Part shown: positions 138 to 57,265 of the stretch, in pieces
Position numbering within the stretch: position 1 is the stretch's first letter
How the letters are laid out: each line of letters starts with the position of its first letter
Assembly: GCA_965200215.1 (NCBI GenBank)
Contig: OZ241369.1
Location: 1,754 to 65,753, forward strand
Length of the DNA: 64,000 nucleotides
Reading direction: 5' to 3'
Source: Alphaproteobacteria bacterium
Lineage (GTDB): Bacteria > Pseudomonadota > Alphaproteobacteria > SP197
Notes under the pieces: generated by a model
Told to the model about the DNA's origin: nothing
Seen by the model: only the letters and a program-made list of their open reading frames with translations
The model's database searches: none
Program-made: the position numbers and the translations under genes

Positions 138-236
138 ACCGGAAGGCTGGCCCGGACGGGCCGGCCCGTGAACCCGGTCAGGTCCGGAAGGAAGCAGCCG
201 TAGCGGGATGGGCCCGGGTCGAGCCGGTCTTCCGCA
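138..236 (+). ncRNA. ffs: Signal recognition particle RNA (4.5S, small SRP RNA).
   Basis: Contains the domain IV consensus GGUCAGGUCCGGAAGGAAGCAGCC (172-199). The 5' CGGAAG (140-145) can pair with the 3' CUUCCG (229-234). Sits in the classic position immediately upstream of dnaX. Ends approximate. Confidence 0.75.
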
Positions 237-5699: not shown

Positions 5700-6125
5700 C
5701 TCCCGGAAATGTGATTCTGCGACGCCCGCCATCATGCCGCAGCGCCCGCCACCATGCAAGCACGCCCGCCAGCCCAGAGCAAACACCCCCCACCGCCCTT
5801 TGGCACCGCCACCCGCACCCCAGGCCCCGACCAAGCGTCCCGCCGTCCGGCCCACCCACGCACCGACCGAGCGTCCCGTCCCCCAGGCACTATCGCCAGC
5901 GTCACGCCCCCCGGCGGGCCGAAAGGCCCGCCCACACACCATCCCGAGCGCCGGCGTCCCGCCGGCAAACGGGCCGCAAGGCCCGTCAACGCACCACCCC
6001 CCACCGCCAGGCACCGCCGCCAGGCACCACCGTCCACCCCCGCTCTCACTGGCTACCGGCCACTGGCTACTGGCCACTAGCCACCAACCACCACCCACTA
6101 ACCACCGCGCCGCCCCCCACGCCAG
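5700..6125 (+). repeat. Dispersed intergenic repeat, about two core units plus a long CCACT/GCCACT tail, + orientation.
   Basis: GGGCCGAAAGGCCCGCC and GGGCCGCAAGGCCCGTCAACGCACC cores, followed by CACTGGCTACCGGCCACTGGCTACTGGCCACTAGCCACC. Confidence 0.8.
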
Positions 6126-9544: not shown

Positions 9545-9765
9545 ACCCGCCGGGCACCGCCGCCAGCCACACGCCTCTGGAAGCGCCGAACCCCCACCGC
9601 CAGGCACCGCCCCCACCACCGGCGCCCCCCTGGGAGCGCCGGCGTCCCGCCGGCAAACGGGCCGCAGGCCCGTCGACGCACCACACGCCCGCCGCCAGGC
9701 ACCACCCCCACCACCGCTCTCACTAACCACTAACCACTGACCACCGGCCACCGGCCACTACCCCC
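9545..9765 (+). repeat. Dispersed intergenic repeat copy, + orientation.
   Basis: CCCTGGGAGCGCCGGCGTCCCGCCGGCAAACGGGCCGCAGGCCCGTCGACGCACC plus a CTCACTAACCACTAACCACTGACCACCGGCCAC tail. Confidence 0.8.
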
Positions 9766-11989: not shown

Positions 11990-14900
11990 TTACCAGCTCA
12001 TACGCAGTTCCAGGCCCAGTCCGTGGCTCACAGCGGGGTGTTCGCTGCGGGTGGCTTCGATCTTCAGGCCCAGGGCGGTGCCCAGCGCCAGGCGCTGGCC
12101 CAGGCTGTAGCGGCGCTCGTCGCCGCCCAGGGCCAGGCCGCCATAGGGCGTCAGCGTGCCGGCCTCGCCCCAGGCCGCCAGGCCGTAGCCCAACTCGCCC
12201 TCCAGGCGACCGCCGCCCTCGCCGCCGACGCCGTCGCGCGAGGCCATGCCTTCCTCCCACAGCCGCGCAAGCCCGCTGCCGGAAGCGCCCCAGGCCGGCG
12301 ACAGCGACAGCGACAGGCCGCGCCCGTCGCCGCCCGCGTCCATATGCAGGCTGCCGGACGCGCCCCATTCCTCCACATCGCTGCCATGCGCCACCAGGCT
12401 GCGACCCGATACCGACGCCGACAGCCCGGCCGCGGCGTCCGACCAGGCCAGCCCGCCGCCCAGTTCCACGCCCACGCCGGTGGCGCCGTCGCCATCGTCC
12501 CAGCGCAGACCCGCCTCCAGCGACGGCTCCAGCAGACGACCGCCCCGCAGCGCCCAGTTCCAGCTGCCCACCGTCGCCAGCCGCACCCGCCGCGTCGAGA
12601 CGCTCACCCCGGCAATCGCCTCGCCGTTGTCGGCCAGCACATAGCGGGTCGCCTCCGCAGAGGCACGCATCTCCACGGCGGAATCCCCGTCGCCATAGAC
12701 CGGCACCGCACCGCCCAACGCGCCGGCCACAAGCCGCCCGTCGCTCTCCTGCCACTCATAGCGGTCGAAGATGCCCGTGTCGGCGATCCGGACCTCGCCA
12801 TGGCCGTAGCCCAGCGCCGCCCACAGACGCTCGCCGCCGCCACCCGACCAGCCCAGATAGGGATGCACCGCCACCATCCGATGCTCGTGGTCGCCCTCGA
12901 TGGCCCCCGCGTCCTCGTCGCTGCGGTCCGTGTAGTCGATGGCGCTCTCGAAGCGCGAGACCGCCACGCCGCCCATGACGCCGCCGCCCAGGGCCACATC
13001 CGCCCCCACATGGGCGGAAAACAGCTTCCCGGACCACGACAGCAGGCCGTCCTCGCGCGACAGGTCGCGCCAGTCGCCGCCGCCCCACATCACCACCGCC
13101 GAGCCGCCGCCGCCGGAACCGTCCTCGCCCTCGCCGCCCAGGGCCAGCGCGAAGCTCTCGCCGCCCACCAGCTCGCGCCACGAACCCTCGCCGTCCTCCA
13201 GGGCCTCGCCCTTCGAGCGCAGAAAGTCCGCCGCAGCCGCAAGGCCCTGCTCCATCGCGCCGCCCCCCGAACCGCCGCCGCCGGGGGCTCCCAGGCGGGC
13301 GCCGATGGCGTCCAGCGCGCTGCCCCACATGGCACGCGACAACTCCGGCAGAACCGAGCGGTTCACCGCCGCCAGACGCTCGCGAGCCGCAGCCAGCGCC
13401 GGGACCACCTCGATGGTGAACTCCAGCGTCACAGGCTGGCCATCGACGTCGGTCGCCGTCCAGGTGTAGCGCGTGACCGCCATCTCCGCCGTCGGCGCCC
13501 CCGACAACCGATCACCACCCTCGTCGCACTCGAAGCCCTCGCACATGACACCGTCCGGAAGCGCCGGCGACAGCGCGTATATGAACGGCGCGTCGCCCGT
13601 CGCCGCCGGCAGCGTCTCCGGGGCGATCTCCTCGCCCACCGTCCAGGAAAGCGCCTCCGGGAAGTCCACCGCGAAGGACGGCGCCGTGTCCGCGTAGCCC
13701 ACCGCAAACGGCGAGAACGACATCACCCTGTCCGCGCACACCTGCGCGCCCTCGTCTCTCGATCCCTCCACCCGTTCCCCGCGACGCAACAGGAGCAGCG
13801 TCCGGCCCTTTGCCGCCTCGCGCACATCTGGGGTCACCGGCAGGCACAGCCGCAGGCCACCCGGCGGCACGGGAGAAACCGCGATATTCATCACCACCCG
13901 CGCCGCTGCCGGCCCCAGGCTGTGTTCGCTTCCCGCCGCCTCCGCCGCCCGGTCCTCAGGCCACGGCGAGAACGTCAGCGCCAGCTCCGGACCCGGCCCC
14001 ACACCCCTCAGATCGACCTCGATCCTCGTCGTCACCCCGGAGGCCACCGTCAACCCGGGGGCCACCGTCACCTTCACCAGCCGGTCCTCGACGCGGTAGC
14101 TCGTCGTGCCCGCATCGGCGGCCACCGCGATCCGGGTCGCCCCCGCCACCGACGCCGCGACATCCAGGCTCGCGGATACCCCTCCGTAATCGCCGCCCGA
14201 TGCCCGGTGCATCACCGACAGCGCCGCCGCGTAGCCGTCCGCCCCCACCGACGACCCCACCGTCACCGTCACCGCCTGCGCCCGGTTCCAATCCGCCATC
14301 GTGAAGGTCAGCGACGAAGGCGCGGCCCGCACATCGCCCGCCGCCGCGACCGTCACCGTCACCGGCCCCGTGGGCTGCGAGTTCAGCGCCACCGTGTAGC
14401 TCGCAGCTCGCGACCCCGACGCCACCTCCACCACGCTGGCGGTCGTGCCGGCGGCGAGGAACAGCAACCCCTTCTCGTCGTCGTCCACGATGGTCAGCTT
14501 CGCGTCGTCGTCGTCCACGTCCACGATCTCGTTGTTCATCGTGGCCTGGGCGTTCACCGCCGTCCCGGAGACCGTCACCGTCTTGTTATCCGCGTCCACG
14601 GCGTTGTTCACCGCCGTCACCGTCACCAGGCCGGTGCTGGTGGTCTCCCCCGCCGCGATGGTCAGCGTCGCCGCCGCGCTCAGCGTGAAGTCCCCCGCCA
14701 CCGCAGGGGCGACCGGCGCCGCCGTCACCGTCACCACCGTCTCCGCAACCGACGGGTGCTCCTTCACCGCCGTCACCGTCGCCACACCGCCATCCTCCGA
14801 GATCGAGGAAGGCGCCAGCGCCAGCGTCACCTCCGGCGGCTCGTCGTCGGTCGTGGTCCCGTTCACGTCCACGGGGTCGAGGCTGTCGTAGTCGGCATCG

Positions 14901-17900
14901 CCGCTCGACGGGGCCAGGCGCACCCGCCAAGGCTGGGGGCCATCGTGGAGGTTGTCCTTCACCCCCGTCACCGTCACCGTCTGCGCCGTCTCCCAGTTCC
15001 CCGTCGTGAACACCAGCGACGAAGGCGCGACCGTCCCCTCGCTCGTATCCAGGCTGGTCACCGCCACCGTCACCGCCGCCGAAGGCTGCGTCTGCAACGC
15101 CACCGTGAAGGTGGCCTGCCCCCCCGCCTCCGTCGCCTGGCCGCTCACCGCGCTCTCGGACAGACCGAACTCGTCGTCGCGGATGGTAAGCGTCGCGTTG
15201 GAAGGCGCCGCCACCCCCCGGCCCCCCGCCGCCGTCGCCGACACCGTCACCCGCTTGCGCCCCTCCGCAGCGGTGTTGTCCACCGAGGTGATCGTCACCA
15301 CGCCGGCGCTGGTCGTCGCCCCCGCCGCGATGGTCAGCGTGTTGGTCGAACTCAGCGTGAAGTCCCCCGCCACCGCCGGGGAGACCGGCGCCGCCGACAC
15401 CGTCAGCGTCGTCGCCACCGTCGTCGGGTGCGACAGCACCGCCGTCACCGTGCTCACCTCCCCGTTCTCCAGGATCGCCGCCGGGGCCAGCGCCAGCGTC
15501 GCCGTCGCCGTCGCCTCGTCGTCGGTCAGCGTCAGCGTCACGGCGGAAGGCGCCGCAACCCCGTTGCCGCCGGTCGCCGTCGCCGAGACCGTCACGCTCT
15601 TGTTCGCCGCGTCCACGGCGTTGTCGTTGCCCCGCACCGTCACCGCCCCGGTGCTGGTGGTCGCCCCCGCCGCGATGGTCAGGGTCGCCGCCGTGCTCAG
15701 CGTGAAGTCGCCCGCCACCGCCCCCGTCGAGGCCACCGCCGCCACCGTCAGCGTCGTCGCCACCGTCGTCGGATGCGACAGCGTCGCCCTCACCGTGCTC
15801 ACGCCGCCGTTCTCCGAGATCGAGGCCGGCCCCAGCGCCAGCGCCGCCGTCGGCAGCGCGTCGTCGTCGGCGAGCGTCAGCGACGCCCCCGTCACCGCCC
15901 CCGCCCCCTGGCCGTTGGTCAGCGCCGCCGTCACCGTCACGCTGCGACCCGCGCTGCCCTGATAGACGTCGTCGTCCACCGCCGTCACCAGCGCCGTATC
16001 CGAGGCCGCCGTGGTGGCGCCCGCCGCGATGACGATGGTCGCGTCCGTCCCCGCCGCGTAGGCACCGGCAACCGCCTGAACCGTCACCGTCGAGGGCTCC
16101 GACGACAGGCCCGACAGCGTCGCCGTCACCGTCGCGACGCCGCCGTTCTCGGAAACCGACGCCGGCATCACCGAAAGCGTCGCCCCCGGCGCCGCCTCGT
16201 CGTCCTCCAGCGTCAGCGTCGCGCCCGTCACCGTCATGGTCCGGCTGTCGGCCGCCGCCCGGGCGTTGGTCACCGTCGCCGTCACCGTCGCCGTCCGGTT
16301 CGGCTCGTCGGTCGTGTTGTCCACCGCCGTCACCAGCACCGTGTCCGTGGGCGCCGCCGTCGCCTCCGCCGGGATGACGATGGTGGCGTCCGTCCCCACC
16401 GTGAACGACCCGGAGGCCGCGCCCACCGTCAGCGTCGTCGCCGCCCCCGACCCATGCGAAAGCCGCGCCGTCACCGTCGCCACGCCGCCCATCTCCGCCA
16501 CCGAAGACGGCGACAGCGCCATCGTCACCCCCGGCGCCCCGTCGTCGTCGGTGGTGGTCACGTCCTGGTCCACCTCCACGCTGTCGCCGTTGTAGTTGGG
16601 GTCGCTGCTCGACGGGTCCAGGCGCACCTGCCAGGTCACCGTCCCGTCGTCGATCGTGTCCTGAACCCCCGTCACCGTCACCGTCTGCGGCGTGCTGTAA
16701 GCCCCCGGCGCGAAGGTCAGCGCCGGCGGCGACACCGTCCCCTCGCTCGCATCCCGGCTCGTCACCGCCACCGTCACCGCCGCCGTCGGCACCGTGTTCA
16801 GCCGCACCGTGAAGGTGGACGTCCCGCCCGCCTCCGTCGCCTGGCCGCTCACCGCGCTCTCCGACAGCCCGAACTCGTCGTCGCGCAGGATCAGCGTCGC
16901 GTTGGACGGGTTCTCCACCCCCCGGCCCCCCGCCGCCGTCGCCGACACCGTCACCTGCTTGTTCCCCGTGGCCACGGCGTTGTCCACCGCCGTCACCGTC
17001 ACCACGCCGGTGCTGGTGGTGGCGTTGGCCGCGATGGTCAGCGTCGTCGTCGAACTCAGGCTGAAGTCCGCCGCCACCGCGCCGGTCCCCGCCGCCGCCG
17101 CCACCGTCAGCGTCGCCGCCTCGGTGGTCGGATGCGACAGCCGCGCCGTCACCGTGCTCACCCCGCCGTTCTCCGTAATCGTCGACGGATCCAGCACCAG
17201 ACTCGCCGTCGCGTCGTCGTCGTTGGTCAGCGTCAGCACGGTGAGCCCCGGGTTCTGTACGCCGTTGCCGCCCGTCGCCGTCGCCGAAAGCCGCAACAGC
17301 TTGTCGGCCGCGTCCACGTTGTTGTCGACGCCCGTCACCGTCACCAGCCCCGTGCTGGTCCGCGAACCCGCCGCGACGGTCAGCGTCGTCCCCGACTGCG
17401 TGAAGTCGCCCGCCACCGCGCCCGACGTCGCCACCGCCGTCACCGTCACCGTCACCGTCACCGCCTCGCTCGACTTGCCCGAAAGCCCCGCCAGCTGCGC
17501 CGTTATCGTGGCGATGCCGCCGTTCTCCGAGATCGAACTGGCAAGGGGGTCGATCAACAGCGACGCCGTCGGCAGGTTCTCGTCGTCGGTGATCGTCAGC
17601 GACGCCCCCGTCACCGAACCCGCCCCCTGGCCGTTGGTCAGCGTCCCCGTCACCGTCGCCGAACGCCCCGCGTTGCCATGGTGGAGGTCGTCGTCCACCA
17701 CCACGATCAGCGCCGTATCCGAGGCCGCCGTGGTGGCGCCCGCCGCGATGACGATGGTCGCGTCCGCCCCCGCCGTATAGGCGCCGGAGACCGCCGTCAC
17801 CGTCACCGTCGAGGGCTCCGACGACGGATGCGACAGCGTCGCCGTCACCGTCGAGACGCCGCTGGGCTCCGCGATCGACGCCGGGTTCACCGCCAGCGTC

Positions 17901-20900
17901 ACCCCCGGCCCCGCGTCGTCGTCGGCGATCGCCAGCGTCACGTCGGGCGGGTCGTTGGTCAGGTTGAGGCTGTCGGCAGCCGTTCCCGAGACCGTCACCG
18001 ACTTGTCCGGCGCGTCCGTGGTGTTGTTCACCGCCGTCACCGTCACCAGCCCCGCGCTGGTGGTCGCGTTGGCCGCGAAGGTCAGCGTCCTCGCCGTGCT
18101 CAGGCTGAAGTCCCCCGCCACCGCGCCGGTCCCCGCCGCCGCCGCAACCGTCACCGTCACCGCCACGCTCGAGGTCCGGTCCAGCGTCGCCGTCACCGTC
18201 GCCACACCGCCGTTCTCCGCGATCGACGCCGGGTCCAGCGCCAGCGTCGTCTGCGGCGTGTCGTCGTCGGTGATGGTCAGCGTCCGGTTGGCCGGGTTCG
18301 CCACGCTGTTGCCGCCGGCCGCCGTCCCCGAGACCGTCACCTGTATGCTGCCCGTGGTCCCCGTATCGTCCACCGCCGTCACCGTCACCACACCGGCGCT
18401 GGTCGTCGCGCCCGCCGCGATGGTCAGCGTCGCCGCCGTGCTCAGGCTGAAGTCCGCCGCCGTCGCGCCCGTCCCCGCCGCCGCCCCAACCGTCACCGTC
18501 ACCGCCTCGCTCGACTTGCCCGACAACCCCGCCGTCACCGTGCTCACGCCGCCGTTCTCCGAGATCGAGGTGGAAGACAGCGCCAGACTCAACGTCGGCA
18601 GCGTCTCGTCGTCGGTCAGCGTCAGCGACCCACCCGTCACCGCCCCCGCGCCCTGGCCGTTGGTCAGCGCCGCCGCCACCGTCACCGAACGCCCCGCGCT
18701 CCCCTGGTGAATGTCGTCGTCCACCGCCGTCACCGTCGTCGTATCCGTGGTCACCGTGAAGCCCGCCGCGACGGTGAGCGTCGCGTTCGCAGCCACCGTG
18801 TAATCCCCCACAACCGCCGTCACCGTCACCGTCGAAGGCTCCGACGACGGGCGCGACAGCACCACCGCCACCGACGCCACGCCCCCGTTCTCCGAAACCG
18901 AAGACGGAGCCAGGAACAGCACCGCACCCGTCGCCGGGTCGTCGTCGGTGATCGCCAGCGTCGCGCCCGTCACCGCCATGGTCGTCGAATCCGCCGCCGC
19001 CCGGTCGTTCGTCACCGCCGCCGTCACCGTCGCCGTCCGGTCCGGCGCGTCGGTCACATTGTCCACCGCCGTCACCAGCACCGTGTCGGAAGCCGCCGTC
19101 GTCTCGCCCGCCGCGATGACGATGGTCGCGTCCGTCCCCACCGTGAAGGCCCCCGTCACCGCCGCCACCGTCAGCGTCGTCGCCGCCCCCGACCCATGCG
19201 AAAGCCGCGCCGTCACCGTCGAAACACCGCCCATCTCCGAAACCGAAGACGGGTCCAGGGCCAGCGTCACACCCGGCGGCCCGTCGCCGTCGGTGGTCGT
19301 CACGTCCACATCCACATTGGCGAGGCCGTTGTAGTCGATATCCCCGCTCGCCGGGTCCAGGCGCACCTGCCACGTCACGTCCGCGTCGTCGGTCGAGTCC
19401 TGGACGCCCGTCGCCGTCACCGTCTGCGCCGTGTCCCAGCCCCCCGCCCCCGTCGCCGTCGTGAACGTCAGCAACGAAGGATCCACCGTCCCCTCGCTCG
19501 TATCCAGGCTCGCGACCGCCACCGTCACCGCCGCCGAAGGCTCCGTGTTCAACCGCACCGTGAACGTGGCCTGCCCGCCCGTCTCCGTCACCGTCCCGCT
19601 CACCGCGCCCACGGCCAGCCCGAATTCATCGTCGCGCAGGATCAGCGTCGCGTCGGCCGGGGCCGCCAACATGCCCCCCCCCGCCGCCGTCGCCGAAACC
19701 GTCACCCGCTTGCGCCCCTGCGCATTGTTGTTGTCCACCGCCGTCACCGTCACCAGCCCCGTGCTGGTCGTGTCGCCGGCCGCGATGGTCAGCGTCGTGG
19801 TCGAACTCAGGCTGAAGTCCGCCGCCACCGCCGGCGACACCGGCGCCGCCGTCACCGTCAGCGTCGCCGCCGCCGTCGTCGGGTTCGACAGCCGCGCCGT
19901 CACCGTGCTCACCTCGCCGTTCTCCAGGATCGAGGCCGGGTCCAGCACCAGCGTCGCCGTCGCGTCGTCGTCGTCGGTCAGCGTCAGCGTCGCGTCCGGC
20001 GGGTCCGCCACGCCGGTGCCCCCCGCCGACGTCCCCGTAATCGTCACCGTCTTGGTCGCGGTCCCGATGTCCACGTTGTTGTCCACGCCCGTCACCGTCA
20101 CCAGCCCCGTGCTGGTCGTCGCCCGCGCCGCGATCGTCAGCGTTGTCCCCGTCAGCGTGAAATCGCCCGCCACCGCCCCCGTCGAGGCCACCGCCGCCGC
20201 CGCCACCGTCACCGTCACCGCCTCGCCCGACTTGCCCGACAGCGTCGCCGTCACCGTGCTCACCCCGCCGTTCTCCGAGATCGTGTCCGCCGACATCGGG
20301 TCCGGCTCCGACAGCGCCAGCGCCACCGTCGGCAGAATCGTCTCGTCGTCGGTGCGCGTCAGCGTCGCGTCCGCCGGGTTCGGCACGCCGTTGCCCCCGG
20401 CCACCGTCCCCGAAATCGTCACCCTGCTGCCCGCGCTCCCCTGATAGGCGTCGTCGTCCACCGACGTCACCGTCACCACGCCCGTGCTCGTCGTCGCGTT
20501 CGCCGCGATCGTCAGCGTCGTCCCCGCCTGCGTGAAGTCGCCCGCCGCCGCGCCGGTCCCCGCCGCCGCCGCCACCGTCACCGTCGCCGCCTCCGTCGTC
20601 GGATACGACAGCGTCGCCGTCACCGTCGAAAGGCCGCCGTTCTCCGCCACCGTCGCCGGGTCCGGCACCAGCGTCACCGCCAGCACGTCGTCTTCGGTAA
20701 TCGTCAGGGTGGCGCTCAGGTCGGCGAGCCGCCGCCCGACCGGGGCCGTGGTCCGCACGGCAGCCGGGGCCGTCCGGACCGTCACCGACTTGCTGAACGG
20801 CCTGTGAACCATGTTGTCCACCGCCGTGATCGTCACCAGCCCCGTGTTGACCGTCGCCCCCGCCGGGATGATCACTCCCGGCTGCGACAGCGTGAAGTCC

Positions 20901-22141
20901 GCCGCCACCGTGTTCGTGTCCCCCGCCACCGCTTGCAGGCCCACCGTCACCGCCGCGCTCGCCGCCGTCGTCAGCGTCGCCGTCACCGTCGAGACGCTGC
21001 CCTCCGCGATCGAGGTCGGGTTCAGCACCACCTTCACATACGGCTCGTCGTCCGGGATGGTCAGCGTCACGCTCGCCGGGTCCACCGCCCCGCCGCTCGG
21101 CGTCACGCTTCCCGAAACCGTCACCGTCTTGGCGGCCGCGACCACGTTGTTGTTCACCGCCGTCACCGTCACCGTGCCGGTGCTGGCCGTCGCCCCCGCC
21201 GGGATGGTCAGCGTCGTCGCCGTGCTCACCGTGAAGTCGCCCGCCACCGCCGGCGACACCGGCGCCGCCGTCACCGTCACCGTCACCGGCCGCACCGGCG
21301 TCTTGCTCAGCGTCGCCCTCACCGTCGCCACCCCGCCGTTCTCCGCGATCGAGGCCGGCGACAGCGACAGCGTCGTCCGCGGCTGCGAACCCGTCGCCCC
21401 CACGATCGCCTGGTTGGTGGAGGTCACGGTCAGGCCGCCGGAATGGGCGCCGGGCGCCACCTGCACGCGGAAGGCCCGGTCGCCGCTGAGCGCCGTCGAC
21501 CCGCTGTAGGAGAGCGTCACCGTCGCCGTCGTGCCGCCGCTCGTGGCCGACGCGCCGGTGATGCTCAATCCCGCGATCGCCGGCGTGGCGCTCACCGTGA
21601 AGTGGGAGGCGGCCACGCTGCTGCCGTACGTCTGGCCGTTCAGCTCCACATCCAGCGTCGCGTTGTTCAGGTTCCCCCACGTCAGCCACGCCCGGTTCGA
21701 GGACACGATCTTCGCCACGCTGCCATCGACCTTGTGGCCCGCCTGGTTGGTCACCGCGGCATGGTCGCGGTTGACGTTACCGAATCCGAAGGACCTGTAA
21801 GCGGGGCCGCCGATCGAGTTTTGCGGAATGGAGATGCCGTCGGCGTCGACGTCGCCCGCCTGCACCGTGTAGCTGAATTGGGAGTTTGTCCTCCGGACGG
21901 TGTACCCGTGGCTGATGTACGCCCGTCGCGTGTTGGCGCCGATGGTGATGTTCATATAGATGGTGGTGAAAGAGCCACCGGAGACGCCGAAGACCTGCCC
22001 GTGGTTGAGCTGGGTGGTGATGGTCTCGCCGACGCCGTAGGTGTCGCCGCTGGCCGGCGTGGAGGTGATGACGGGGTTCGCAAAAGCCGGCCCCACCCCC
22101 AACAACACCAACCCCACCCCCAACACCAAAGCCCGAACCAC
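11990..22141 (-). CDS. Giant (~3380 aa) type Va autotransporter adhesin. Signal peptide, about 25 tandem Calx-beta-like roughly 100-aa repeats, a putative Ig/cadherin-like domain and a C-terminal beta-barrel translocator.
   Basis: ORF 11990..22912. Signal-peptide-like RALVLGVGLVLLGVGPAFA with an in-frame GTG at 22141. Repeats of the type AGDFTL...TLTIAAGATTSTGxVTVTAVDNxxD...VTVSxTAxGGxGVxxPxxATLTLTDDD. The C-terminus has Gly-rich beta-strands ending ...GLGLELRMSW (aromatic terminal residue, typical of the autotransporter barrel). The exact start is uncertain. Confidence 0.85.
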   Translation of the reverse strand: MVRALVLGVGLVLLGVGPAFANPVITSTPASGDTYGVGETITTQLNHGQVFGVSGGSFTTIYMNITIGANTRRAYISHGYTVRRTNSQFSYTVQAGDVDADGISIPQNSIGGPAYRSFGFGNVNRDHAAVTNQAGHKVDGSVAKIVSSNRAWLTWGNLNNATLDVELNGQTYGSSVAASHFTVSATPAIAGLSITGASATSGGTTATVTLSYSGSTALSGDRAFRVQVAPGAHSGGLTVTSTNQAIVGATGSQPRTTLSLSPASIAENGGVATVRATLSKTPVRPVTVTVTAAPVSPAVAGDFTVSTATTLTIPAGATASTGTVTVTAVNNNVVAAAKTVTVSGSVTPSGGAVDPASVTLTIPDDEPYVKVVLNPTSIAEGSVSTVTATLTTAASAAVTVGLQAVAGDTNTVAADFTLSQPGVIIPAGATVNTGLVTITAVDNMVHRPFSKSVTVRTAPAAVRTTAPVGRRLADLSATLTITEDDVLAVTLVPDPATVAENGGLSTVTATLSYPTTEAATVTVAAAAGTGAAAGDFTQAGTTLTIAANATTSTGVVTVTSVDDDAYQGSAGSRVTISGTVAGGNGVPNPADATLTRTDDETILPTVALALSEPDPMSADTISENGGVSTVTATLSGKSGEAVTVTVAAAAVASTGAVAGDFTLTGTTLTIAARATTSTGLVTVTGVDNNVDIGTATKTVTITGTSAGGTGVADPPDATLTLTDDDDATATLVLDPASILENGEVSTVTARLSNPTTAAATLTVTAAPVSPAVAADFSLSSTTTLTIAAGDTTSTGLVTVTAVDNNNAQGRKRVTVSATAAGGGMLAAPADATLILRDDEFGLAVGAVSGTVTETGGQATFTVRLNTEPSAAVTVAVASLDTSEGTVDPSLLTFTTATGAGGWDTAQTVTATGVQDSTDDADVTWQVRLDPASGDIDYNGLANVDVDVTTTDGDGPPGVTLALDPSSVSEMGGVSTVTARLSHGSGAATTLTVAAVTGAFTVGTDATIVIAAGETTAASDTVLVTAVDNVTDAPDRTATVTAAVTNDRAAADSTTMAVTGATLAITDDDPATGAVLFLAPSSVSENGGVASVAVVLSRPSSEPSTVTVTAVVGDYTVAANATLTVAAGFTVTTDTTTVTAVDDDIHQGSAGRSVTVAAALTNGQGAGAVTGGSLTLTDDETLPTLSLALSSTSISENGGVSTVTAGLSGKSSEAVTVTVGAAAGTGATAADFSLSTAATLTIAAGATTSAGVVTVTAVDDTGTTGSIQVTVSGTAAGGNSVANPANRTLTITDDDTPQTTLALDPASIAENGGVATVTATLDRTSSVAVTVTVAAAAGTGAVAGDFSLSTARTLTFAANATTSAGLVTVTAVNNTTDAPDKSVTVSGTAADSLNLTNDPPDVTLAIADDDAGPGVTLAVNPASIAEPSGVSTVTATLSHPSSEPSTVTVTAVSGAYTAGADATIVIAAGATTAASDTALIVVVDDDLHHGNAGRSATVTGTLTNGQGAGSVTGASLTITDDENLPTASLLIDPLASSISENGGIATITAQLAGLSGKSSEAVTVTVTVTAVATSGAVAGDFTQSGTTLTVAAGSRTSTGLVTVTGVDNNVDAADKLLRLSATATGGNGVQNPGLTVLTLTNDDDATASLVLDPSTITENGGVSTVTARLSHPTTEAATLTVAAAAGTGAVAADFSLSSTTTLTIAANATTSTGVVTVTAVDNAVATGNKQVTVSATAAGGRGVENPSNATLILRDDEFGLSESAVSGQATEAGGTSTFTVRLNTVPTAAVTVAVTSRDASEGTVSPPALTFAPGAYSTPQTVTVTGVQDTIDDGTVTWQVRLDPSSSDPNYNGDSVEVDQDVTTTDDDGAPGVTMALSPSSVAEMGGVATVTARLSHGSGAATTLTVGAASGSFTVGTDATIVIPAEATAAPTDTVLVTAVDNTTDEPNRTATVTATVTNARAAADSRTMTVTGATLTLEDDEAAPGATLSVMPASVSENGGVATVTATLSGLSSEPSTVTVQAVAGAYAAGTDATIVIAAGATTAASDTALVTAVDDDVYQGSAGRSVTVTAALTNGQGAGAVTGASLTLADDDALPTAALALGPASISENGGVSTVRATLSHPTTVATTLTVAAVASTGAVAGDFTLSTAATLTIAAGATTSTGAVTVRGNDNAVDAANKSVTVSATATGGNGVAAPSAVTLTLTDDEATATATLALAPAAILENGEVSTVTAVLSHPTTVATTLTVSAAPVSPAVAGDFTLSSTNTLTIAAGATTSAGVVTITSVDNTAAEGRKRVTVSATAAGGRGVAAPSNATLTIRDDEFGLSESAVSGQATEAGGQATFTVALQTQPSAAVTVAVTSLDTSEGTVAPSSLVFTTGNWETAQTVTVTGVKDNLHDGPQPWRVRLAPSSGDADYDSLDPVDVNGTTTDDEPPEVTLALAPSSISEDGGVATVTAVKEHPSVAETVVTVTAAPVAPAVAGDFTLSAAATLTIAAGETTSTGLVTVTAVNNAVDADNKTVTVSGTAVNAQATMNNEIVDVDDDDAKLTIVDDDEKGLLFLAAGTTASVVEVASGSRAASYTVALNSQPTGPVTVTVAAAGDVRAAPSSLTFTMADWNRAQAVTVTVGSSVGADGYAAALSVMHRASGGDYGGVSASLDVAASVAGATRIAVAADAGTTSYRVEDRLVKVTVAPGLTVASGVTTRIEVDLRGVGPGPELALTFSPWPEDRAAEAAGSEHSLGPAAARVVMNIAVSPVPPGGLRLCLPVTPDVREAAKGRTLLLLRRGERVEGSRDEGAQVCADRVMSFSPFAVGYADTAPSFAVDFPEALSWTVGEEIAPETLPAATGDAPFIYALSPALPDGVMCEGFECDEGGDRLSGAPTAEMAVTRYTWTATDVDGQPVTLEFTIEVVPALAAARERLAAVNRSVLPELSRAMWGSALDAIGARLGAPGGGGSGGGAMEQGLAAAADFLRSKGEALEDGEGSWRELVGGESFALALGGEGEDGSGGGGSAVVMWGGGDWRDLSREDGLLSWSGKLFSAHVGADVALGGGVMGGVAVSRFESAIDYTDRSDEDAGAIEGDHEHRMVAVHPYLGWSGGGGERLWAALGYGHGEVRIADTGIFDRYEWQESDGRLVAGALGGAVPVYGDGDSAVEMRASAEATRYVLADNGEAIAGVSVSTRRVRLATVGSWNWALRGGRLLEPSLEAGLRWDDGDGATGVGVELGGGLAWSDAAAGLSASVSGRSLVAHGSDVEEWGASGSLHMDAGGDGRGLSLSLSPAWGASGSGLARLWEEGMASRDGVGGEGGGRLEGELGYGLAAWGEAGTLTPYGGLALGGDERRYSLGQRLALGTALGLKIEATRSEHPAVSHGLGLELRMSW

Positions 22142-22149
22142 CCGCCCCC

Positions 22150-22515
22150 CCGGCAGCGCCAAACGCCCACCGCCAGGCACCGCCCAGGCAGCCCGCCTCC
22201 CGGCGACCGGCCACTGGCCACCGGCCCCCTGGGAGCGCCGGCGTCCCGCCGGCAACGGGCCGCCAGGCCCGCCAACGCACCACCGGCCACCGCCAGGCAC
22301 CAACCGAGCGTCACACCCACCGGCGAAGCCCGCCCCCGGCAGCGCCCAGCGCCCACCGCCAGGCACCGACCGAGCGTCACGCCCCCTGGGAGCGCCGGCG
22401 TTCCGCCGGCAACGGGCCGCCAGGCCCGCCAACGCACCGCAAGCCCACCGCCAGGCACCACCCAGGCAGCCCGCTCTCACCGGCCACTGGCTACCGGCGA
22501 CCGGCCACCGAACCC
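22150..22515 (+). repeat. Dispersed intergenic repeat, two or three core units, + orientation.
   Basis: Three GGGAGCGCCGGCG(T)TCCGCCGGCAACGGGCCGCCAGGCCCGCCAACGCACC-type cores, then CTCACCGGCCACTGGCTACCGGCGACCGGCCAC. Confidence 0.8.
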
Positions 22516-22518
22516 CCC

Positions 22519-22800
22519 TCACGCCGCCGCCGTCTCCGACTCCCGCGCCTGCCGAGACTCCCGCCGCAGGAACCCCTCGAACATCCCTTCGATCCGGGCC
22601 ATCCGCTCCCGCAACTTCGCCATCTCGCCGCGCACGGCTTCGAACTGCTGGCTCGTATCCTCCCGCAGCTCCTTGATCTCGCCGCGCAGTTCCCTCATCT
22701 CGCCGCGGCGCTCGCGGTTCAAGACCAGCGCCAGGCCAGCCAATGCCACGCCCACCGTGGCAATGCCGATCGGCTCCGGGATCATGCCCGCTCCTCCCAA
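22519..22800 (-). CDS. Small membrane-anchored coiled-coil protein (N-terminal TM, LRERMARIEG motif).
   Basis: MIPEPIGIATVGVALAGLALVL TM helix followed by the heptad-rich ELRGEIKELRED...KLRERMARIEGMFEG. Alternative start at 22785. Confidence 0.5.
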   Translation of the reverse strand: MGGAGMIPEPIGIATVGVALAGLALVLNRERRGEMRELRGEIKELREDTSQQFEAVRGEMAKLRERMARIEGMFEGFLRRESRQARESETAAA

Positions 22801-23274
22801 ACCAGGATGCGCAACCTACACCCCCGGCGCGCGCATTCCCAGGCGATAACGGCGCCGGAACCGGCATTCCGCCCCACCGGCTACCGCCCGCCCCCATCAC
22901 CGCCTCACCCATGCGCGGGGGGGGGGGGGGGGGTACAACGTCGGCCCGGCAGCGAACGGCGAAGCAAGAAAGCCCATAATCCCCTCACTCGGCAGCGCAA
23001 CGGCGGCTGCAACCCCTCATAGCCCACCCCCCGGCGATGTCAAGCCCGCCGTCAAGGTCAAGCACAGCATCAACCACCCGCCGCAAACACAAGCACCATA
23101 GCACAAAACCCCACCCCCAACCACCACCGCCCGGCAAGCCGCCAGGCCCGCCCACACACCGCTCCCCAAGCGCCACCCACCCACCGCCAGGCACCACCCC
23201 CAGCCACCCGCTCCCACGAACCACTAGCCGCTGGCTACCGGCCACGGGCCACTAGCCACCGGCCAACCCACCGC
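22801..23274 (+). repeat. Intergenic region with a poly-G18 tract (22916-22933) and a dispersed repeat copy (23040-23270), + orientation.
   Basis: 18 consecutive G at 22916-22933. CCGCCAGGCACCACC...CCACGAACCACTAGCCGCTGGCTACCGGCCAC tail. Confidence 0.75.
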
Positions 23275-23568
23275 CTACAGCAACAGCTTGATAATGGCGA
23301 CGGTGAGAGCAGCGTTGGCGAGGGCGAAGGCGAGGAAAGCCAGATAGATGCGCGCTTCGAGGCGAGCGAGGCCGGCAGCGAGGTCGCCCCTGGTGGCGAA
23401 GTCCTTGAGGTCGGCCTTGGTGGCCAGCTCGCTATGACCGGCGCCGGCAGCGCGGGCAGCGGTCTCGACGACAGCTTCCGCCTGGCGCTCGTCGAAGCCA
23501 GCCTCCCGAAGCGCCTTGGCGGCCGCATAGGTATCGAAGGCAGCAAGCGCCACGGCGATGACTCCCAA
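23275..23568 (-). CDS. DUF1640-like small coiled-coil protein with a C-terminal TM anchor.
   Basis: AFDTYAAAKALREAGFDERQAEAVVE...LATKADLKDFATRGDL...ARIYLAFLAFALANAALTVAIIKLLL. Paralog of 11448..11753. Confidence 0.6.
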   Translation of the reverse strand: MGVIAVALAAFDTYAAAKALREAGFDERQAEAVVETAARAAGAGHSELATKADLKDFATRGDLAAGLARLEARIYLAFLAFALANAALTVAIIKLLL

Positions 23569-23815
23569 ACGGCAGGGACGATACCAGGCAGGCTAGACGA
23601 AGACGCCGCTAGGCGCAAGGTGCGCCACCGCCCCCGGCGGGCCGCAAGGCCCGCCCACGCACCACACGCCCGCCGTCAGGCACCACCACCATTCCCCGCT
23701 CCCACTGGCTACTGGCTACTAACCACTAACCACCCCCACCACCCCCCAGCCTCCCCACCAGCGCGGCAAGCCAGGGGGTGAGTTCCGGCGCGATATGGCC
23801 GTCGTCGCGCCGGGG
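23569..23815 (+). repeat. Dispersed repeat copy plus a ~70-bp duplicate of the 3' end of the HAD nucleotidase gene (23740-23815).
   Basis: GGCGGGCCGCAAGGCCCGCCCACGCACC core plus CCACTGGCTACTGGCTACTAACCACTAACCAC. Then CCCCAGCCTCCCCACCAGCGCGGCAAGCCAGGGGGTGAGTTCCGGCGCGATATGGCCGTCGTCGCGCCGGG, which matches 25023-25105 apart from a 10-12 bp indel. Confidence 0.75.
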
Positions 23816-23833
23816 CAAGCACCGTGACTCCAA

Positions 23834-24196
23834 TCAATGACTATCCAGATACCGGCGTATGTAACTCGCTCCCAGACCGACAATGGCGCCGCTCAAGACG
23901 GAGTTCTTTATGTCCTGCAATTCATCCGGGTTGAGCCAGTGCCATTTGTTTGGCGTCAGGAGGTGATATCCCAAGGTGGACACGGCCCCGGCGACGACGA
24001 TAAAAACCATCACCAGGAGAATCCACGTGCACAAGGCAAGGATTGTCCGGGACGTCTGATCCCGATAGTGTTCGCTCCGTCTTTTTTGCAGTTCTTGTTC
24101 TTCGGATTCCGCAAGGGAGTCCCCATGGGAGGAAGGAGCCGGCTGAGGCGGAACACGCTGCCGGCTTTCCGGAGGCTTATTCCCGCTCTTTTTCAT
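23834..24196 (-). CDS. Small (120 aa) membrane protein; candidate toxin partner (PanT-like) of the upstream Panacea-domain gene.
   Basis: ATG at 24196 (MKKSGNKPPES...) overlaps the upstream gene stop by 4 bp (ATGA). Hydrophobic segment ILALCTWILLVMVFIVVAGAVSTLGY. Low GC (~52%). The role is inferred from gene context only. Confidence 0.45.
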   Translation of the reverse strand: MKKSGNKPPESRQRVPPQPAPSSHGDSLAESEEQELQKRRSEHYRDQTSRTILALCTWILLVMVFIVVAGAVSTLGYHLLTPNKWHWLNPDELQDIKNSVLSGAIVGLGASYIRRYLDSH

Positions 24197-24690
24197 TCGC
24201 TTGCAGCCGCAAGTTCGGCAAAATGCTCCTCGATGAGCTCGTCGGGAATGATGGAGTTGCAGCCCGTTTGATGCCAGATCTGATGCCAGGGCGTCCCGCG
24301 CGCATGCGTGAGCTGCGACAGCTGGACACCCGAAAATTCGCAATAGACGTTGAACACCTGTCGGATCAGGTCTTCTTCCAGGGGATCGAAATCGCTATCC
24401 GGAAAGTCCTGGACGACGTTGACGGGTTTGCGTCCATAACGCTTCAGCCCGTGATATACATCCGGAATGACCGGACCGTATTTCCAGGCTTCGACGGGCT
24501 GCGCCGATAATGGGCGATGGTATAACCCGAGCATCCATCCGTGGCACAGATAGGTGAGCTTGATCAGTTGCAGAGGATCGCGGGGCTTGCCCCCATTGAT
24601 GCCCAGTCGGATCAGAGCGTTTGCGACGGCTCGAGAATCGTGCTTCCGAGAGTTGTGTTTCATGGCATAAAGGTCCGATGTTGGGAACAT
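24193..24690 (-). CDS. Panacea-domain (DUF4065, SocA/PanA-like) protein; putative antitoxin.
   Basis: LQLIKLTYLCHGWMLGLYHRPLSAQPVEAWKYGPVIPDVYHGLKRYG matches the DUF4065/Panacea consensus (KLqKLlYfaqgw...AWkyGPVvpevY). Low-GC island. Confidence 0.65.
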   Translation of the reverse strand: MFPTSDLYAMKHNSRKHDSRAVANALIRLGINGGKPRDPLQLIKLTYLCHGWMLGLYHRPLSAQPVEAWKYGPVIPDVYHGLKRYGRKPVNVVQDFPDSDFDPLEEDLIRQVFNVYCEFSGVQLSQLTHARGTPWHQIWHQTGCNSIIPDELIEEHFAELAAASE

Positions 24691-24834
24691 AAGCCGGGAA
24701 AGAACAAACGTTCCTTTAGGGAAAAGCGCTTTATGCTGGCATGATCATGGGCGAGCTGCCATTATGTTTCCTGGCTCCCCACAGACAGAGGCCGTCAGGA
24801 TAGGCCCCACCGCCGCGCTATGTCAAACTCTTCA

Positions 24835-25015
24835 TGCCGGCTCCCGAAGCCACCGCCCCCACCGCCCCCACCGCCCGCGCGCCCCTGGGAGCGCCGGCGT
24901 CCCGCCGGCAAACGGGCCGAAGGCCCGTCAACGCACCACCCGCCCACCGCCAGGCACCGCCCAAGCGTCACGCCCCCGGCGACCGGCCACTAGCCACTAA
25001 CCACTAGCCACTAAC
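24835..25015 (+). repeat. Dispersed intergenic repeat copy, + orientation.
   Basis: CCCTGGGAGCGCCGGCGTCCCGCCGGCAAACGGGCCGAAGGCCCGTCAACGCACC plus CCACTAGCCACTAACCACTAGCCACTAACC. Confidence 0.8.
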
Positions 25016-25691
25016 CCCCACCCCCCAGCCTCCCCACCAGCGCAGCAAGCCAGGGGGTGAGCTCCGGCGCCCGATGGTCGATATGGCCGTCGTCGCGCCG
25101 GGCCATGGCGAAGTCGCCCCCGATCCACACGGTGGTCATGCCGCGTTCCTTGGCCGGCTTGAGGTTGCGGGCGATATCCTCGATCAGCGCCGCCCGCCGC
25201 GGCCGGATGGCGTGGCGTCGCAGCAGCAGGTCGTAGGCGGCCGGCTGCGGCTTGGGCACGAAGCCGGCCGCCTCGATGTCGAACACCGCCTCGAAATGGC
25301 GGGCGATCCCCAGCCGCGCCATCACCCGCCCGGCATGGGCCTCGTCGCCATTGGTGAAAATCAGCTTGCGCCCCGGCAGCCCGCCCAGCGCCCGATCCAG
25401 CGCCGGATCGGGCGGGATCGGGCGGTAATCGATGTCGTGGACATAGGCCAGGAAGGCGCGCGGGTCGCATTCGTGCCGCGCCATCAGGCCGGCCAGCGTG
25501 GTCCCGTATTCCAGGAAATAGCGCTTCTGCAGCGCCCTGGCCGCGTTGCGGTCCTCCTGGCCCAGCAGCGCGCAGACATAATCGGTGATGCGCCGCGAGA
25601 CCTGCTCGAAAAACCCGTGGCGGGCGGCATACAGCGTGTTGTCGAGGTCGAAGACCCAGCACTCGACCGCCGCCAGGCCGCCCCCGCTCAC
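25011..25691 (-). CDS. HAD-family pyrimidine 5'-nucleotidase (YjjG/SDT1-like); GTG start overlapping the argB stop.
   Basis: WVFDLDNTLY (DxD motif) ... KPQPAAYD ... HAD motifs III/IV (IEDIARNLKPAKERGMTTVWI). Confidence 0.8.
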   Translation of the reverse strand: MSGGGLAAVECWVFDLDNTLYAARHGFFEQVSRRITDYVCALLGQEDRNAARALQKRYFLEYGTTLAGLMARHECDPRAFLAYVHDIDYRPIPPDPALDRALGGLPGRKLIFTNGDEAHAGRVMARLGIARHFEAVFDIEAAGFVPKPQPAAYDLLLRRHAIRPRRAALIEDIARNLKPAKERGMTTVWIGGDFAMARRDDGHIDHRAPELTPWLAALVGRLGGGG

Positions 25692-29032: not shown

Positions 29033-29525
29033 CACCCTCACCCCACCCGCCCCAGCACCACCCACTCGCGCGGCAGTCGCCATGAAGGCGACCCCCGCTT
29101 GCGTGGCAGTCGCCATGAAAGAATCGCTTCCCGCCGCCAGGCACCACCCAGGCGCCCCGCCCCCTGGGAGCGCCGGCGTTCCGCCGGCAAACGGGCCGTC
29201 AGGCCCGTCAACGCACCGACCCCTGCCGTCAGGCACCGACCGAGCGTCCCGTCTCCTGGGAGCGCCGGCGTTCCGCCGGCAACGGGCCGCCAGGCACCGC
29301 ACCCACCACCCGCTCTCACCGGCCACCGGCCACCGGCCACTGGCCACAAGCCAGAGCGCCGGCGTCCCGCCGGCAACGGGCCGCCAGGCCCGTCAGCGCA
29401 CCCAACGCCCGCCGCCAGGCACCGCACCCACCACCCGCTCTCACCGACCACTAGCCACTGGCCACCGGCCACCGGCCACAAGCCAGAGCACCGGCGTCCC
29501 GCCCCCCGGCGTGCCGCCAGGCCCG
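29033..29525 (+). repeat. Tandem array of about 4 repeat core units plus tails, upstream of yidC. Also carries a duplicated GCAGTCGCCATGAA(G)GCGAC palindromic motif at 29066-29112.
   Basis: Four GGGAGCGCCGGCGTTCCGCCGGCAA(A)CGGGCC(G)NNNGGCCCGTCA(A/G)CGCACC units at ~29160, 29260, 29345 and 29490, each followed by a CCGCTCTCACCG(A/G)CCAC...GGCCAC tail. Confidence 0.8.
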
Positions 29526-31256: not shown

Positions 31257-31680
31257 CCCCGCCACCAGGGAGCCCGCGCCGTGGGGGAAGGGGCCCCTGC
31301 CGCCACCAGGCACCACCCCCACCACCCGCACCCCCCTGGGAGCGCCGGCGTCCCGCCGGCAACGGGCCGAAGGCCCGCCGACGCACCGCCGTCCGCCATC
31401 CGCACCCCCCTGGGAGCGCCGGCGTCTCGCCGGCAAACGGGCCGCAAGGCCCGTCAACGCACCACCGCCTGCCGCCAGGCACTACCCCCACCACCCGCAT
31501 CCGGCCACTGGCCACTGGCATCCCCTGGGAGCGCCGGCATCTCGCCGGCAAACGGGCCGCAAGGCCCGTCAACGCACCGCCGCCCACCGCCAGGCACCGC
31601 ACCCACCATCCGCTCTCACCGGCCACTGGCCACTGGCGCCTGGCCACCGGCATCCCACCGCCAGCTAGCGTGCCGATGAG
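31257..31680 (+). repeat. Tandem of about 4 repeat core units plus tail, + orientation.
   Basis: Cores at ~31325, 31405, 31510 and 31560 (GGGAGCGCCGGC(G/A)TC(C/T)CGCCGGCAA(A)CGGGCCG(A/C)AGGCCCG), tail CCGCTCTCACCGGCCACTGGCCACTGGCGCCTGGCCACC. Confidence 0.8.
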
Positions 31681-45359: not shown

Positions 45360-45700
45360 GATAGCCGGGAAGCCTGAAGCCGGGCAGCCCGCCCCCGGCG
45401 GGCCATCCGGCCCGCCCATACACCATCCCCCCGAGCGCCGGCGTCCCGCCGGCAACGGGCCGAAGGCCCGCCAACGCACCGCCCCCACCGCCAGGCGCCA
45501 TCCCCCATTTCCCGCTCTCACTGACTACCAGCCACTGGCCACTGGTCACAAGCCAGAGCCCCGCCGGCAAACGGGCCGAAGGCCCGCCAACGCACCACCC
45601 CCCACCGCCAGGCACCACACCCCACCACCCGCTCTCACTAACCACTAGCCACTAGCCACTGGCACCACCGCCTGCCACTCACAGCCCCGCCACGCTTGGC
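45360..45700 (+). repeat. Dispersed repeat, two or three core units plus tail, + orientation.
   Basis: GGCGGGCCATCCGGCCCGCC, GAGCGCCGGCGTCCCGCCGGCAACGGGCCGAAGGCCCGCCAACGCACC and GCCGGCAAACGGGCCGAAGGCCCGCCAACGCACC, tail CCGCTCTCACTAACCACTAGCCACTAGCCACTGGC. Confidence 0.8.
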
Positions 45701-57089: not shown

Positions 57090-57265
57090 CCTCGGTTTGA
57101 AGATGGGCAGGCGCCATTCACCGCCATCCCCAGGCGCCCCCCTGGGAGCGTCGGCGTCCCGCCGGCAAACGGGCCGCAAGGCCCGCCAACGCACCACACG
57201 CCCACCGCCAGGCACCATCCCCACCCCCGCTCCCACCGACCACTGGCCACTAACCACTATCCACC
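57090..57265 (+). repeat. Full-length dispersed repeat (head hairpin + core + tail), + orientation; right boundary of BrnTA cassette copy 2.
   Basis: CGGTTTGAAGATGGGCAGGCGCCATTCACCGCCATCCCCAGGCGCCCCCCTGGGAGCGTCGGCGTCCCGCCGGCAAACGGGCCGCAAGGCCCGCCAACGCACCACACGCCCACCGCCAGGCACCATCCCCACCCCCGCTCCCACCGACCACTGGCCACTAACCACTATCC. Confidence 0.85.

Follow-up and report, generated by a model that had tools for sequence, protein, structure and literature searches.

Genes and features of the islet

The window, as we call the whole 64,000-nt stretch of DNA that was analysed, carries a short two-gene islet between an intact housekeeping nucleotidase gene (HAD), whose GTG start overlaps the argB stop, and a DUF1640-like gene (Table 1). 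The insertion measures about 1.28 kb in total and contains only a promoter, panA and panT. The islet (23816-24830) has a GC content of 55.6% vs 71.4% for the whole window, so that the low-GC islet of the first-pass annotation stands while its figures (about 52% vs about 70%) are corrected. The islet genes have GC3 values of 0.66 and 0.64, those of HAD, argB and engB being 0.89-0.95, and both measures thus set the islet apart from the flanking genes, in agreement with the earlier view that it is compositionally foreign. By its composition the cassette (its own promoter and two genes, about 1.0 kb) is probably of foreign origin. The PanAT module was also AT-richer than its own host contig at 6 of 6 loci.

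Table 1. Coordinates of the features in and around the islet, in window positions.
Feature	Position	Strand	Basis or remark
DUF1640/CCDC90-like gene	23275-23568		Weak Pfam hit and orthologue in L006
Divergent interspersed repeat copy	23575..23735		Between displaced HAD fragment and DUF1640-like gene
Displaced truncated copy of the last ~25 HAD codons, with a 9-nt deletion	23736..23817	-	Repeat alignment; abuts cassette end
panT, small membrane protein, 120 aa	23834..24196	-	Family of 292, Panacea pairing, S1249 homology, hydropathy, AF2
panA, putative stand-alone Panacea-domain antitoxin, 156 aa from the most likely start	24193..24663	-	PF13274, phrog_1281, homologues
Imperfect palindrome AAAGGAAC-GTTT-GTTCTTT in the 5' leader	24699..24717	-	Read from sequence
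Sigma-70-like promoter TTGACA-18-TATCCT	24797..24826	-	Upstream islet edge, 10/12 matches
REP-like interspersed repeat copy	24840..25010		Between HAD stop and cassette promoter; host-type, outside the low-GC cassette
Pyrimidine 5'-nucleotidase (HAD), intact, 226 aa	25011..25691	-	TIGR01993, 193.6 bits (cutoff 142.9)

The upstream gene of the pair is a Panacea gene, as had been proposed. In a Pfam search the ORF 24193..24690(-) matched PF13274 (SocA_Panacea) with E=2.7e-16 and 60.9 bits (cutoff 25.7) over the full model (1-113 of 113); panA also matched phrog_1281 with E=1.2e-37 and has 535 homologues, mostly of 150-165 aa, and a PDB sequence search with PanA gave no match. The mechanical ORF reaches an upstream ATG at 24690, giving 165 aa. 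Because homologues are 153-156 aa long and the upstream similarity to two homologous loci (L005 and L004) stops some 20 nt short of the second ATG, the true start is most likely at 24663. PanA consists of the Panacea domain only and has no DNA-binding N-terminal domain.

The promoter at the islet edge is the only promoter-like site in 23500-25200, and both of its hexamers are identical in a close but diverged relative (L001). The leader palindrome does not reach the cutoff of the repeat finder; both of its arms are kept in L001, where the spacer reads ACGC. Rfam had no match in or near the islet. A GGAAC...GTTCC repeat, present at 24684-24714, had been put forward as a candidate autoregulatory operator. 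We do not retain this assignment since the pattern has a chance frequency (2 in the window vs 1.39 expected, and at least 2 in 38 of 100 shuffles), L001 does not preserve its distal arm and PanA lacks a DNA-binding N-terminal domain.

PanT is the conserved partner of PanA

The ATG of panT overlaps the panA stop codon (ATGA). PanT LSGAIVGLGASYIRRYL has a charged N-terminus (18 charged residues within positions 1-50), a SEHYRD motif, a TM helix (51-79), a WHWL loop and a C-terminal helix. This architecture is conserved in a widespread family of 292 cluster representatives (E<=1e-3), nearly all of 100-135 aa. Of the original description, the 120-aa membrane protein and the overlap hold, while “single-pass” is plausible and not certain: hydropathy gives a single strongly hydrophobic segment at residues 51-79, and the AF2 model has helices at 26-80 and 90-119. 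No model of PADLOC, Pfam or NCBIfam matches PanT, tblastn against plasmids gave no match and Foldseek with the PanT model against BFVD returned nothing at E<=0.001. A weak match to the PHROG holin family phrog_6384 (E=0.0025) was obtained. Identity with a phage holin was rejected as this match is too weak, neither an endolysin nor a spanin gene lies beside panT and BFVD gave no fold match.

A PanT homologue directly follows a co-oriented Panacea gene in every locus examined (L001-L005, L086-L091, Aggregatibacter phage S1249 and a Pseudomonas phage; 4 of 4 among the sampled divergent members). The genes around these pairs are unrelated from one locus to the next, and the identities of PanA and PanT drop together across loci. 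The small membrane protein is a conserved PanA partner, and the first-pass proposal of a PanT-type toxin is credible.

PanT matched the S1249 protein YP_003344835.1 with E=6e-5 in tblastn, and hhalign of the PanT family profile against the same protein gave a probability of 98.9% and E=3.9e-17. YP_003344835.1 is listed in PanT cluster T12 of Kurata et al. 2022 (Dataset S1; PMC8832971). This cluster also holds a validated PanT of Bartonella apis and a Thalassospira (Rhodospirillales) pair, and every T12 pair shown has the A|T order and a PanA without N-terminal domain (PMC8832971). On sequence grounds PanT is thus assigned to the published cluster T12 (NetFlax D11), with the link to the B. apis toxin running via the T12 protein of the phage and the clusters of Kurata et al.; the PanT profile search itself returned only Pasteurellaceae and Pseudomonas relatives, and B. 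apis WP_077993242.1 was not among them. The toxin had been called uncharacterised, a description that does not apply since T12 (NetFlax D11) is already published and one of its members was validated by experiment. Within the known PanA/PanT family the islet pair is ordinary, and it leaves the current view of Panacea systems unchanged.

A probable PanAT toxin-antitoxin cassette

In our view the two genes of the islet probably form a type II toxin-antitoxin (TA) cassette of the PanAT kind. The toxicity, neutralization mode and recombination mechanism that we infer for the window cassette would be as follows, with the recombination steps given in the next section. panA would encode a stand-alone Panacea antitoxin and panT a translationally coupled, small inner-membrane toxin of T12/D11. 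By analogy with the B. apis (B. choladocola) member, free PanT would insert through its TM helix and depolarise or permeabilise the membrane; the B. apis T12 PanT causes membrane depolarisation and SYTOX uptake (PMC8832971). By the same analogy, PanA may neutralise PanT by binding its cytoplasmic N-terminal segment and short pre-TM helix. PanT_D11 is neutralised directly by a stand-alone Panacea protein touching the region before the TM helix, and this is lost in Y56A and H120E (PMC10440598). In window PanA, the conserved motifs WKYGPV and LTHARGTPW may be the counterparts of these two positions. The conserved SEHxRD motif of the PanT family sits in the proposed PanA-binding region.

The window pair resembles the PanAT system of B. 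apis/B. choladocola (T12; PanT_D11:PanA) in its upstream, putative stand-alone Panacea antitoxin, in its small downstream candidate toxin with charged N-terminus and C-terminal TM region, in the A|T order and in the small gap or overlap between the genes. It differs in that window PanT shares only about 29% identity with the T12 protein of the phage, the comparison with the B. apis toxin not being direct, and in its host, an uncultured high-GC Rhodospirillales-like alphaproteobacterium with a subfamily known from sequence alone. E. coli STEC O31 PanAT (T3) likewise has a small depolarising or permeabilising PanT with charged N-terminus and hydrophobic C-terminus; T3 was held possibly homologous to T12 by Kurata et al., yet placed in a separate cluster (PMC8832971). 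The type VI TA system SocAB of Caulobacter shares with the window an antitoxin-like protein carrying a Panacea domain. Identity with SocAB was rejected, as PanA reaches 90.7 bits vs a cutoff of 190 (NCBIfam NF047745, SocA) and its partner is a membrane protein and not SocB; the comparison gave no sign of ClpXP-adaptor action for window PanA. HokB, TisB and RmrT of RosmerTA have the same expected outcome as PanT, namely depolarisation by a small TM protein, but Hok/TisB are type I systems with RNA antitoxins, RmrT has another antitoxin and no sequence relation to PanT was found.

It is possible, though we hold it doubtful, that the same PanA and PanT proteins have an antiphage role rather than one in plasmid-like addiction or locus stabilisation. 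Pseudomonas phages carry homologous pairs, as does Aggregatibacter phage S1249, where the pair has an Abi-alpha gene beside it. Moreover, the gap between HAD and the DUF1640-like gene, which holds PanAT in all strains, also contains HigBA in two sibling strains (L174, L179) and, in L001, a type I CRISPR-Cas cluster, and so behaves as a hotspot for defence or TA genes. On the other hand, neither protein is matched by PADLOC and no antiphage activity was reported for T12/D11 pairs (PMC8832971, PMC10440598). An antiphage role is compatible with the PanAT explanation and does not replace it.

If PanT were not a toxin but a harmless membrane protein that works with PanA, for instance as an anchor or holin-like accessory, the function of the pair would lie outside TA. 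The weak holin family match would fit such a role, as would the finding that one third of the tested PanTs (8 of 25) were non-toxic in E. coli, where 5 were not rescued by their own PanA (PMC8832971). We find this unlikely in view of the homology to T12, a cluster in which the tested member proved strongly toxic and was neutralised, and of the tight translational coupling and co-divergence of PanT with PanA; the locus also has no lysis-cassette context and the structure search found nothing.

Insertion and inheritance of the cassette

As the first-pass annotation had stated, a duplicated nucleotidase 3' end brackets the islet: 23736-23817 and 25015-25105 form a direct repeat of about 85 nt that is 86% identical including the 9-nt gap, and the window holds only these two copies. 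A longer duplication of 200-280 nt was rejected, as the extra part is a genome-wide interspersed repeat. The two copies of the latter that flank the cassette are 78% alike and other window copies match up to 96%; it yields 55 HSPs across the window, and each of its 27 core copies lies on the + strand. This interspersed repeat is a lineage-specific, strand-biased, double-hairpin element.

Relatives without the islet and with one copy of the HAD-end sequence had been regarded as informative, and such a relative was found. In L006, a genus-level relative, the site is empty and HAD is followed by about 95 nt and then the DUF1640-like gene. Searches with the HAD protein retrieved 80 genome loci and 80 from metagenomes, none with a Panacea gene or panT; of these only L006 is close enough to inform on the empty site. 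No same-species strain without the islet was found. All sibling strains and L001 carry the cassette at the same junction; the 9-nt deletion is the same in all siblings, and L001 has a further deletion of 35 nt. dS is 0.24-0.26 for the cassette vs 0.20-0.30 for argB and HAD, and dN/dS against L001 is 0.12 for panA and 0.24 for panT. Taken together, the cassette is old, fixed in the lineage, vertically inherited and under purifying selection. It still keeps its atypical GC, despite an age that reaches back to the L001 split.

We propose that an ancestor of the species-level lineage gained the cassette horizontally and that recombination placed it right behind the HAD gene, which would have duplicated the last ~85 nt of the gene. 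Vertical descent with purifying selection would have followed. The first-pass annotation had suggested a decayed integrative element, that is, the remnant of an integrase-borne element that entered site-specifically at the HAD 3' end (attL/attR) and whose integrase and cargo then disappeared. A direct repeat of a gene 3' end around foreign DNA, with the gene intact, is indeed the topology of site-specific integration, but a single homologous crossover over ~85 nt yields an equal topology. The HAD-end copies undergo gene conversion and their similarity is therefore no sign of a recent att event. Such a remnant is improbable given the small size of the insertion, the junction shared by all siblings and, later deletions aside, by L001, and the lack of any recombinase or integrase family among the called neighbours at L001 and L174-L179. 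It is also at odds with the cassettes found elsewhere: homology to them covers only the two coding sequences, and same-family cassettes at five other sites have no flanking duplication. That the gap between HAD and the DUF1640-like gene is an integrase-free capture site for minimal TA or defence cassettes, each bracketed by REP-like repeat copies or a short host-gene-end duplication, with the repeats or the ~85-nt duplication mediating insertion and possibly excision, is to our mind highly unlikely.

Read as a probable PanAT cassette, the islet adds a chromosomal, vertically kept T12/D11 member from an uncultured high-GC alphaproteobacterium. It would offer a natural example of a minimal TA cassette that has its own promoter, no mobility genes and a duplicated gene end at its flank. 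Gene callers often skip panT, which is uncalled in L004 and called only as a 60-aa fragment in four sibling contigs. These short calls had suggested a decayed panT in the sibling strains, an idea that was rejected as alignment shows intact reading frames. Because panT is so often missed, PanA genes recorded without a partner may be under-annotated pairs.

The islet and its two genes

The two genes of the cassette lie on the minus strand in a segment (23816-24830) of 55.6% GC, against 71.4% for the window, with the lowest 200-nt windows at 52.5%. Their third codon positions are also poor in GC (GC3 of 0.66 and 0.64) when compared with the HAD pyrimidine 5'-nucleotidase gene (0.89), argB (0.93) and engB (0.95), and the low-GC islet reported by the first-pass annotation therefore stands. 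The upstream gene, panA, had been read as a Panacea-domain antitoxin gene. Indeed its ORF (24193..24690) matched PF13274 (SocA_Panacea) across the full model with E=2.7e-16 and 60.9 bits (cutoff 25.7); it scored 90.7 bits with NCBIfam SocA, under the cutoff of 190. The 535 homologues detected are mostly 150-165 aa long and the similarity to two cassettes at other sites (L005 and L004) begins about 20 nt ahead of the second ATG, which most likely places the true start at 24663 and gives a protein of 156 aa. The product of the downstream gene, panT, carries 18 charged residues within positions 1-50 and a single strongly hydrophobic segment at 51-79, and its AlphaFold2 model (mean pLDDT 78.7) consists of two helices, 26-80 and 90-119.

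Features of the cassette, its flank and the rest of the window
Feature	Position	Strand	Remarks
sigma-70-like site TTGACA-18-TATCCT	24826..24797	-	only one within 23500-25200; both hexamers identical in the diverged relative L001
Imperfect palindrome AAAGGAAC-N4-GTTCTTT	24699-24717		tighter than GGAAC...GTTCC; kept in L001 with another spacer
panT	23834..24196	-	120-aa ORF; start in ATGA overlap with panA stop
HAD (pyrimidine 5'-nucleotidase), intact	25011-25691	-	TIGR01993 193.6 bits; GTG start overlaps argB stop
Bacterial small SRP RNA	141-236	+	RF00169, 62.3 bits

A family of paired genes

A word-index search with the PanT protein found only three close relatives. An exhaustive profile search of 1.84 billion representatives returned 292 proteins with E<=1e-3, of which 32 reach E<=1e-10. 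Almost all of the 292 measure 100-135 aa, and the family has in common a charged N-terminus, a SEHxRD motif, a TM helix, a WHxLxP...WxWL loop and a C-terminal LSGAvVGLGtxYxRRY helix. Four divergent members (E-values 3e-26 to 8e-6) were sampled for context. All four have a PF13274 gene directly upstream on the same strand, overlapping or a few nt away, and the surrounding genes bear no relation between loci. panT also directly follows the Panacea gene in L001-L003, L005 and L004, so that this order, and with it the proposed pairing, held in all loci sampled. Identity to the window's PanA and PanT drops in parallel across loci (95/88, 78/66, 77/51, 56/47, 52/29, 46/28, 40/28 and 30/29%).

Automatic gene calling often misses these genes: panT is absent from the calls in L004 (6465-6842) and appears only as a 60-aa fragment in the sibling contigs L175, L177, L178 and L179, and the Panacea ORF of Pseudomonas phage vB_Pae_CF183a (L093 1532-1966) is unannotated.

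By tblastn against phage genomes the PanT protein matched Aggregatibacter phage S1249 (E=6e-5); the target, YP_003344835.1, is encoded right after the DUF4065 protein YP_003344834.1, and hhalign of our family profile with YP_003344835.1 gave a probability of 98.9% and E=3.9e-17. Kurata et al. 2022 (Dataset S1, PMC8832971) assigned this phage pair to toxin cluster T12, together with a Thalassospira pair and a Bartonella apis pair marked 'TA'; the T12 pairs shown are all antitoxin-then-toxin, with a PanA without N-terminal domain. The B. apis PanT simultaneously shuts down transcription, translation and replication, depolarises the membrane with entry of SYTOX Green, and is neutralised by its PanA (PMC8832971). 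Under the name PanT_D11 it is directly neutralised by a stand-alone Panacea domain, with predicted contacts on its N-terminal region and on the short helix preceding the TM segment, and neutralisation is lost upon Y56A and H120E substitutions (Ernits et al. 2023, PMC10440598). Taken together, the S1249 homology, the T12 listing and the B. apis characterisation argue that the window pair is a member of a known, partly characterised PanAT family, linked to it via the phage member of T12, and not the uncharacterised toxin type first suggested. The main proposal, a PanA with a membrane PanT on a foreign islet between two copies of a gene end, is upheld. By homology PanT would be toxic and neutralised by PanA, and the pair could serve in addiction or phage defence.

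One old insertion beside the nucleotidase gene

The islet is bracketed, as previously noted, by a duplicated HAD 3' end: the final ~85 nt of the gene (25015-25105) are repeated, minus 9 nt, at 23736-23817, and these are the only copies in the window. Apparent similarity runs 130-190 nt further; this extra part belongs to an interspersed repeat (55 HSPs across the window), whose copies either side of the islet are 78% alike and up to 96% alike to copies elsewhere, which leaves a specific duplication of about 85 nt. In the sibling L179 the same derived variants occur in both HAD ends, e.g. GGTGGAGAGGGTGG (L179 1902-2022 vs 3179-3272), a pattern indicative of gene conversion between the functional copy and the displaced one. 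As the two exchange sequence, their 95% identity carries no information on how old the event is.

The best HAD match among GTDB species representatives, a set that does not include the source genome, was 77%, in an alphaproteobacterial MAG (L006). There HAD is followed by ~95 nt and then by the orthologue of a DUF1640-like gene, which in the window sits just past the displaced HAD fragment. L006 has no Panacea gene; it is a relative without the islet, as had been anticipated, and represents the empty site. The cassette was found in none of 160 HAD loci taken from genomes and metagenomes, and in every informative contig that encodes the same ArgB as the window (L174, L175 and L177-L179; DNA identity 95-99%); these share the junction and the 9-nt deletion of the displaced copy. 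A more distant relative (L001-L003; ArgB 98% and HAD 90% identical) is colinear from HAD through the cassette end, with 86% identity across 1390 nt, and its displaced copy has lost another 35 nt by deletion. For the window against L001, dS amounts to 0.255 in panA and 0.238 in panT, compared with 0.195 in argB and 0.30 in HAD, dN/dS is 0.12 and 0.24 for panA and panT respectively, and the panT frame is intact in every strain compared. The shared junction, flank-like dS, low dN/dS and intact panT argue for one old insertion, vertically inherited and under selection, neither a recent arrival nor a decaying remnant. We saw no sign of the decayed integrative element proposed at first, and none of the genes called around the cassette in the related loci is of recombinase type.

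The panT C-terminus is slightly altered in one contig, and in L175 (~4770-4810), L177 and L178 the charged N-terminal region carries an in-frame 39-nt insertion in which the EEQELQK stretch seems partly duplicated. In these three contigs panA is ~88% identical to that of the window, versus 95-99% for flanking genes; strains may have exchanged alleles of the cassette.

The whole insertion (1.28 kb) comprises a host-type repeat, a promoter, panA, panT and the duplicate of the HAD end. DNA homology to the other-site cassettes covers the two coding sequences only (24642-23844), those cassettes show no flanking direct repeats, and in 6/6 loci the cassette has a higher AT content than the contig that carries it. 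The topology of intact gene, cassette and truncated copy of the gene's end is compatible with a single homologous crossover in which a circular molecule shared ~85 nt with the gene. It agrees equally well with site-specific integration into the HAD 3' end by an integrase, although no positive evidence favours the latter.

Regulation

A GGAAC...GTTCC inverted repeat (24684-24714) had been put forward as an autoregulatory operator. It is no commoner than chance predicts, with two occurrences in the window against 1.39 expected (38 of 100 shuffles reach 2), and its distal arm is GTTTCC in L001. Operator autoregulation is also unsupported because the window's PanA is without a DNA-binding domain. 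The tighter imperfect palindrome (24699-24717) fell under the detection threshold of our repeat search, and L004 and L005 lack it.

Neighbourhood

The interspersed repeat is REP-like, with a ~80-nt core and 27 copies across the window, all on the plus strand and 80-97% identical to the query copy (for example 5946-6018, 9619-9707, 24874-24965, 29161-29425, 31325-31600, 45433-45616 and 57134-57216). Often two or three copies share an intergenic gap, and many are flanked by short tandem motifs of CCACTAGCCACTAACC type. The consensus, CCCCTGGGAGCGCCGGCGTCCCGCCGGCAAACGGGCCGcAGGCCCGtCAACGCACCACCgCCCACCGCCAGGCACC, contains two 7-bp hairpins and has no Rfam match; the family is present in L001 too. 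Interspersed repeats also underlie the 5' end of a giant ORF (11990-22912, minus strand), whose start is approximate. The product, of up to 3640 aa, contains many ~100-aa repeats in tandem, and its L174 orthologue gave only faint matches to LapA and Calx-beta; a large surface protein or adhesin of repetitive build is probable.

Close relatives differ in what lies between the displaced HAD fragment and the DUF1640-like gene, a gap that resembles a hotspot of TA and defence cassettes. L174 (9025-9618) and L179 (3430-4027) hold there an extra HigB-like toxin and HTH antitoxin pair flanked by interspersed-repeat copies, and L001 (10464-18944) a type I CRISPR-Cas cluster with Cas_GSU0053 and a Cas3 of 1172 aa that also matches the Fic domain.
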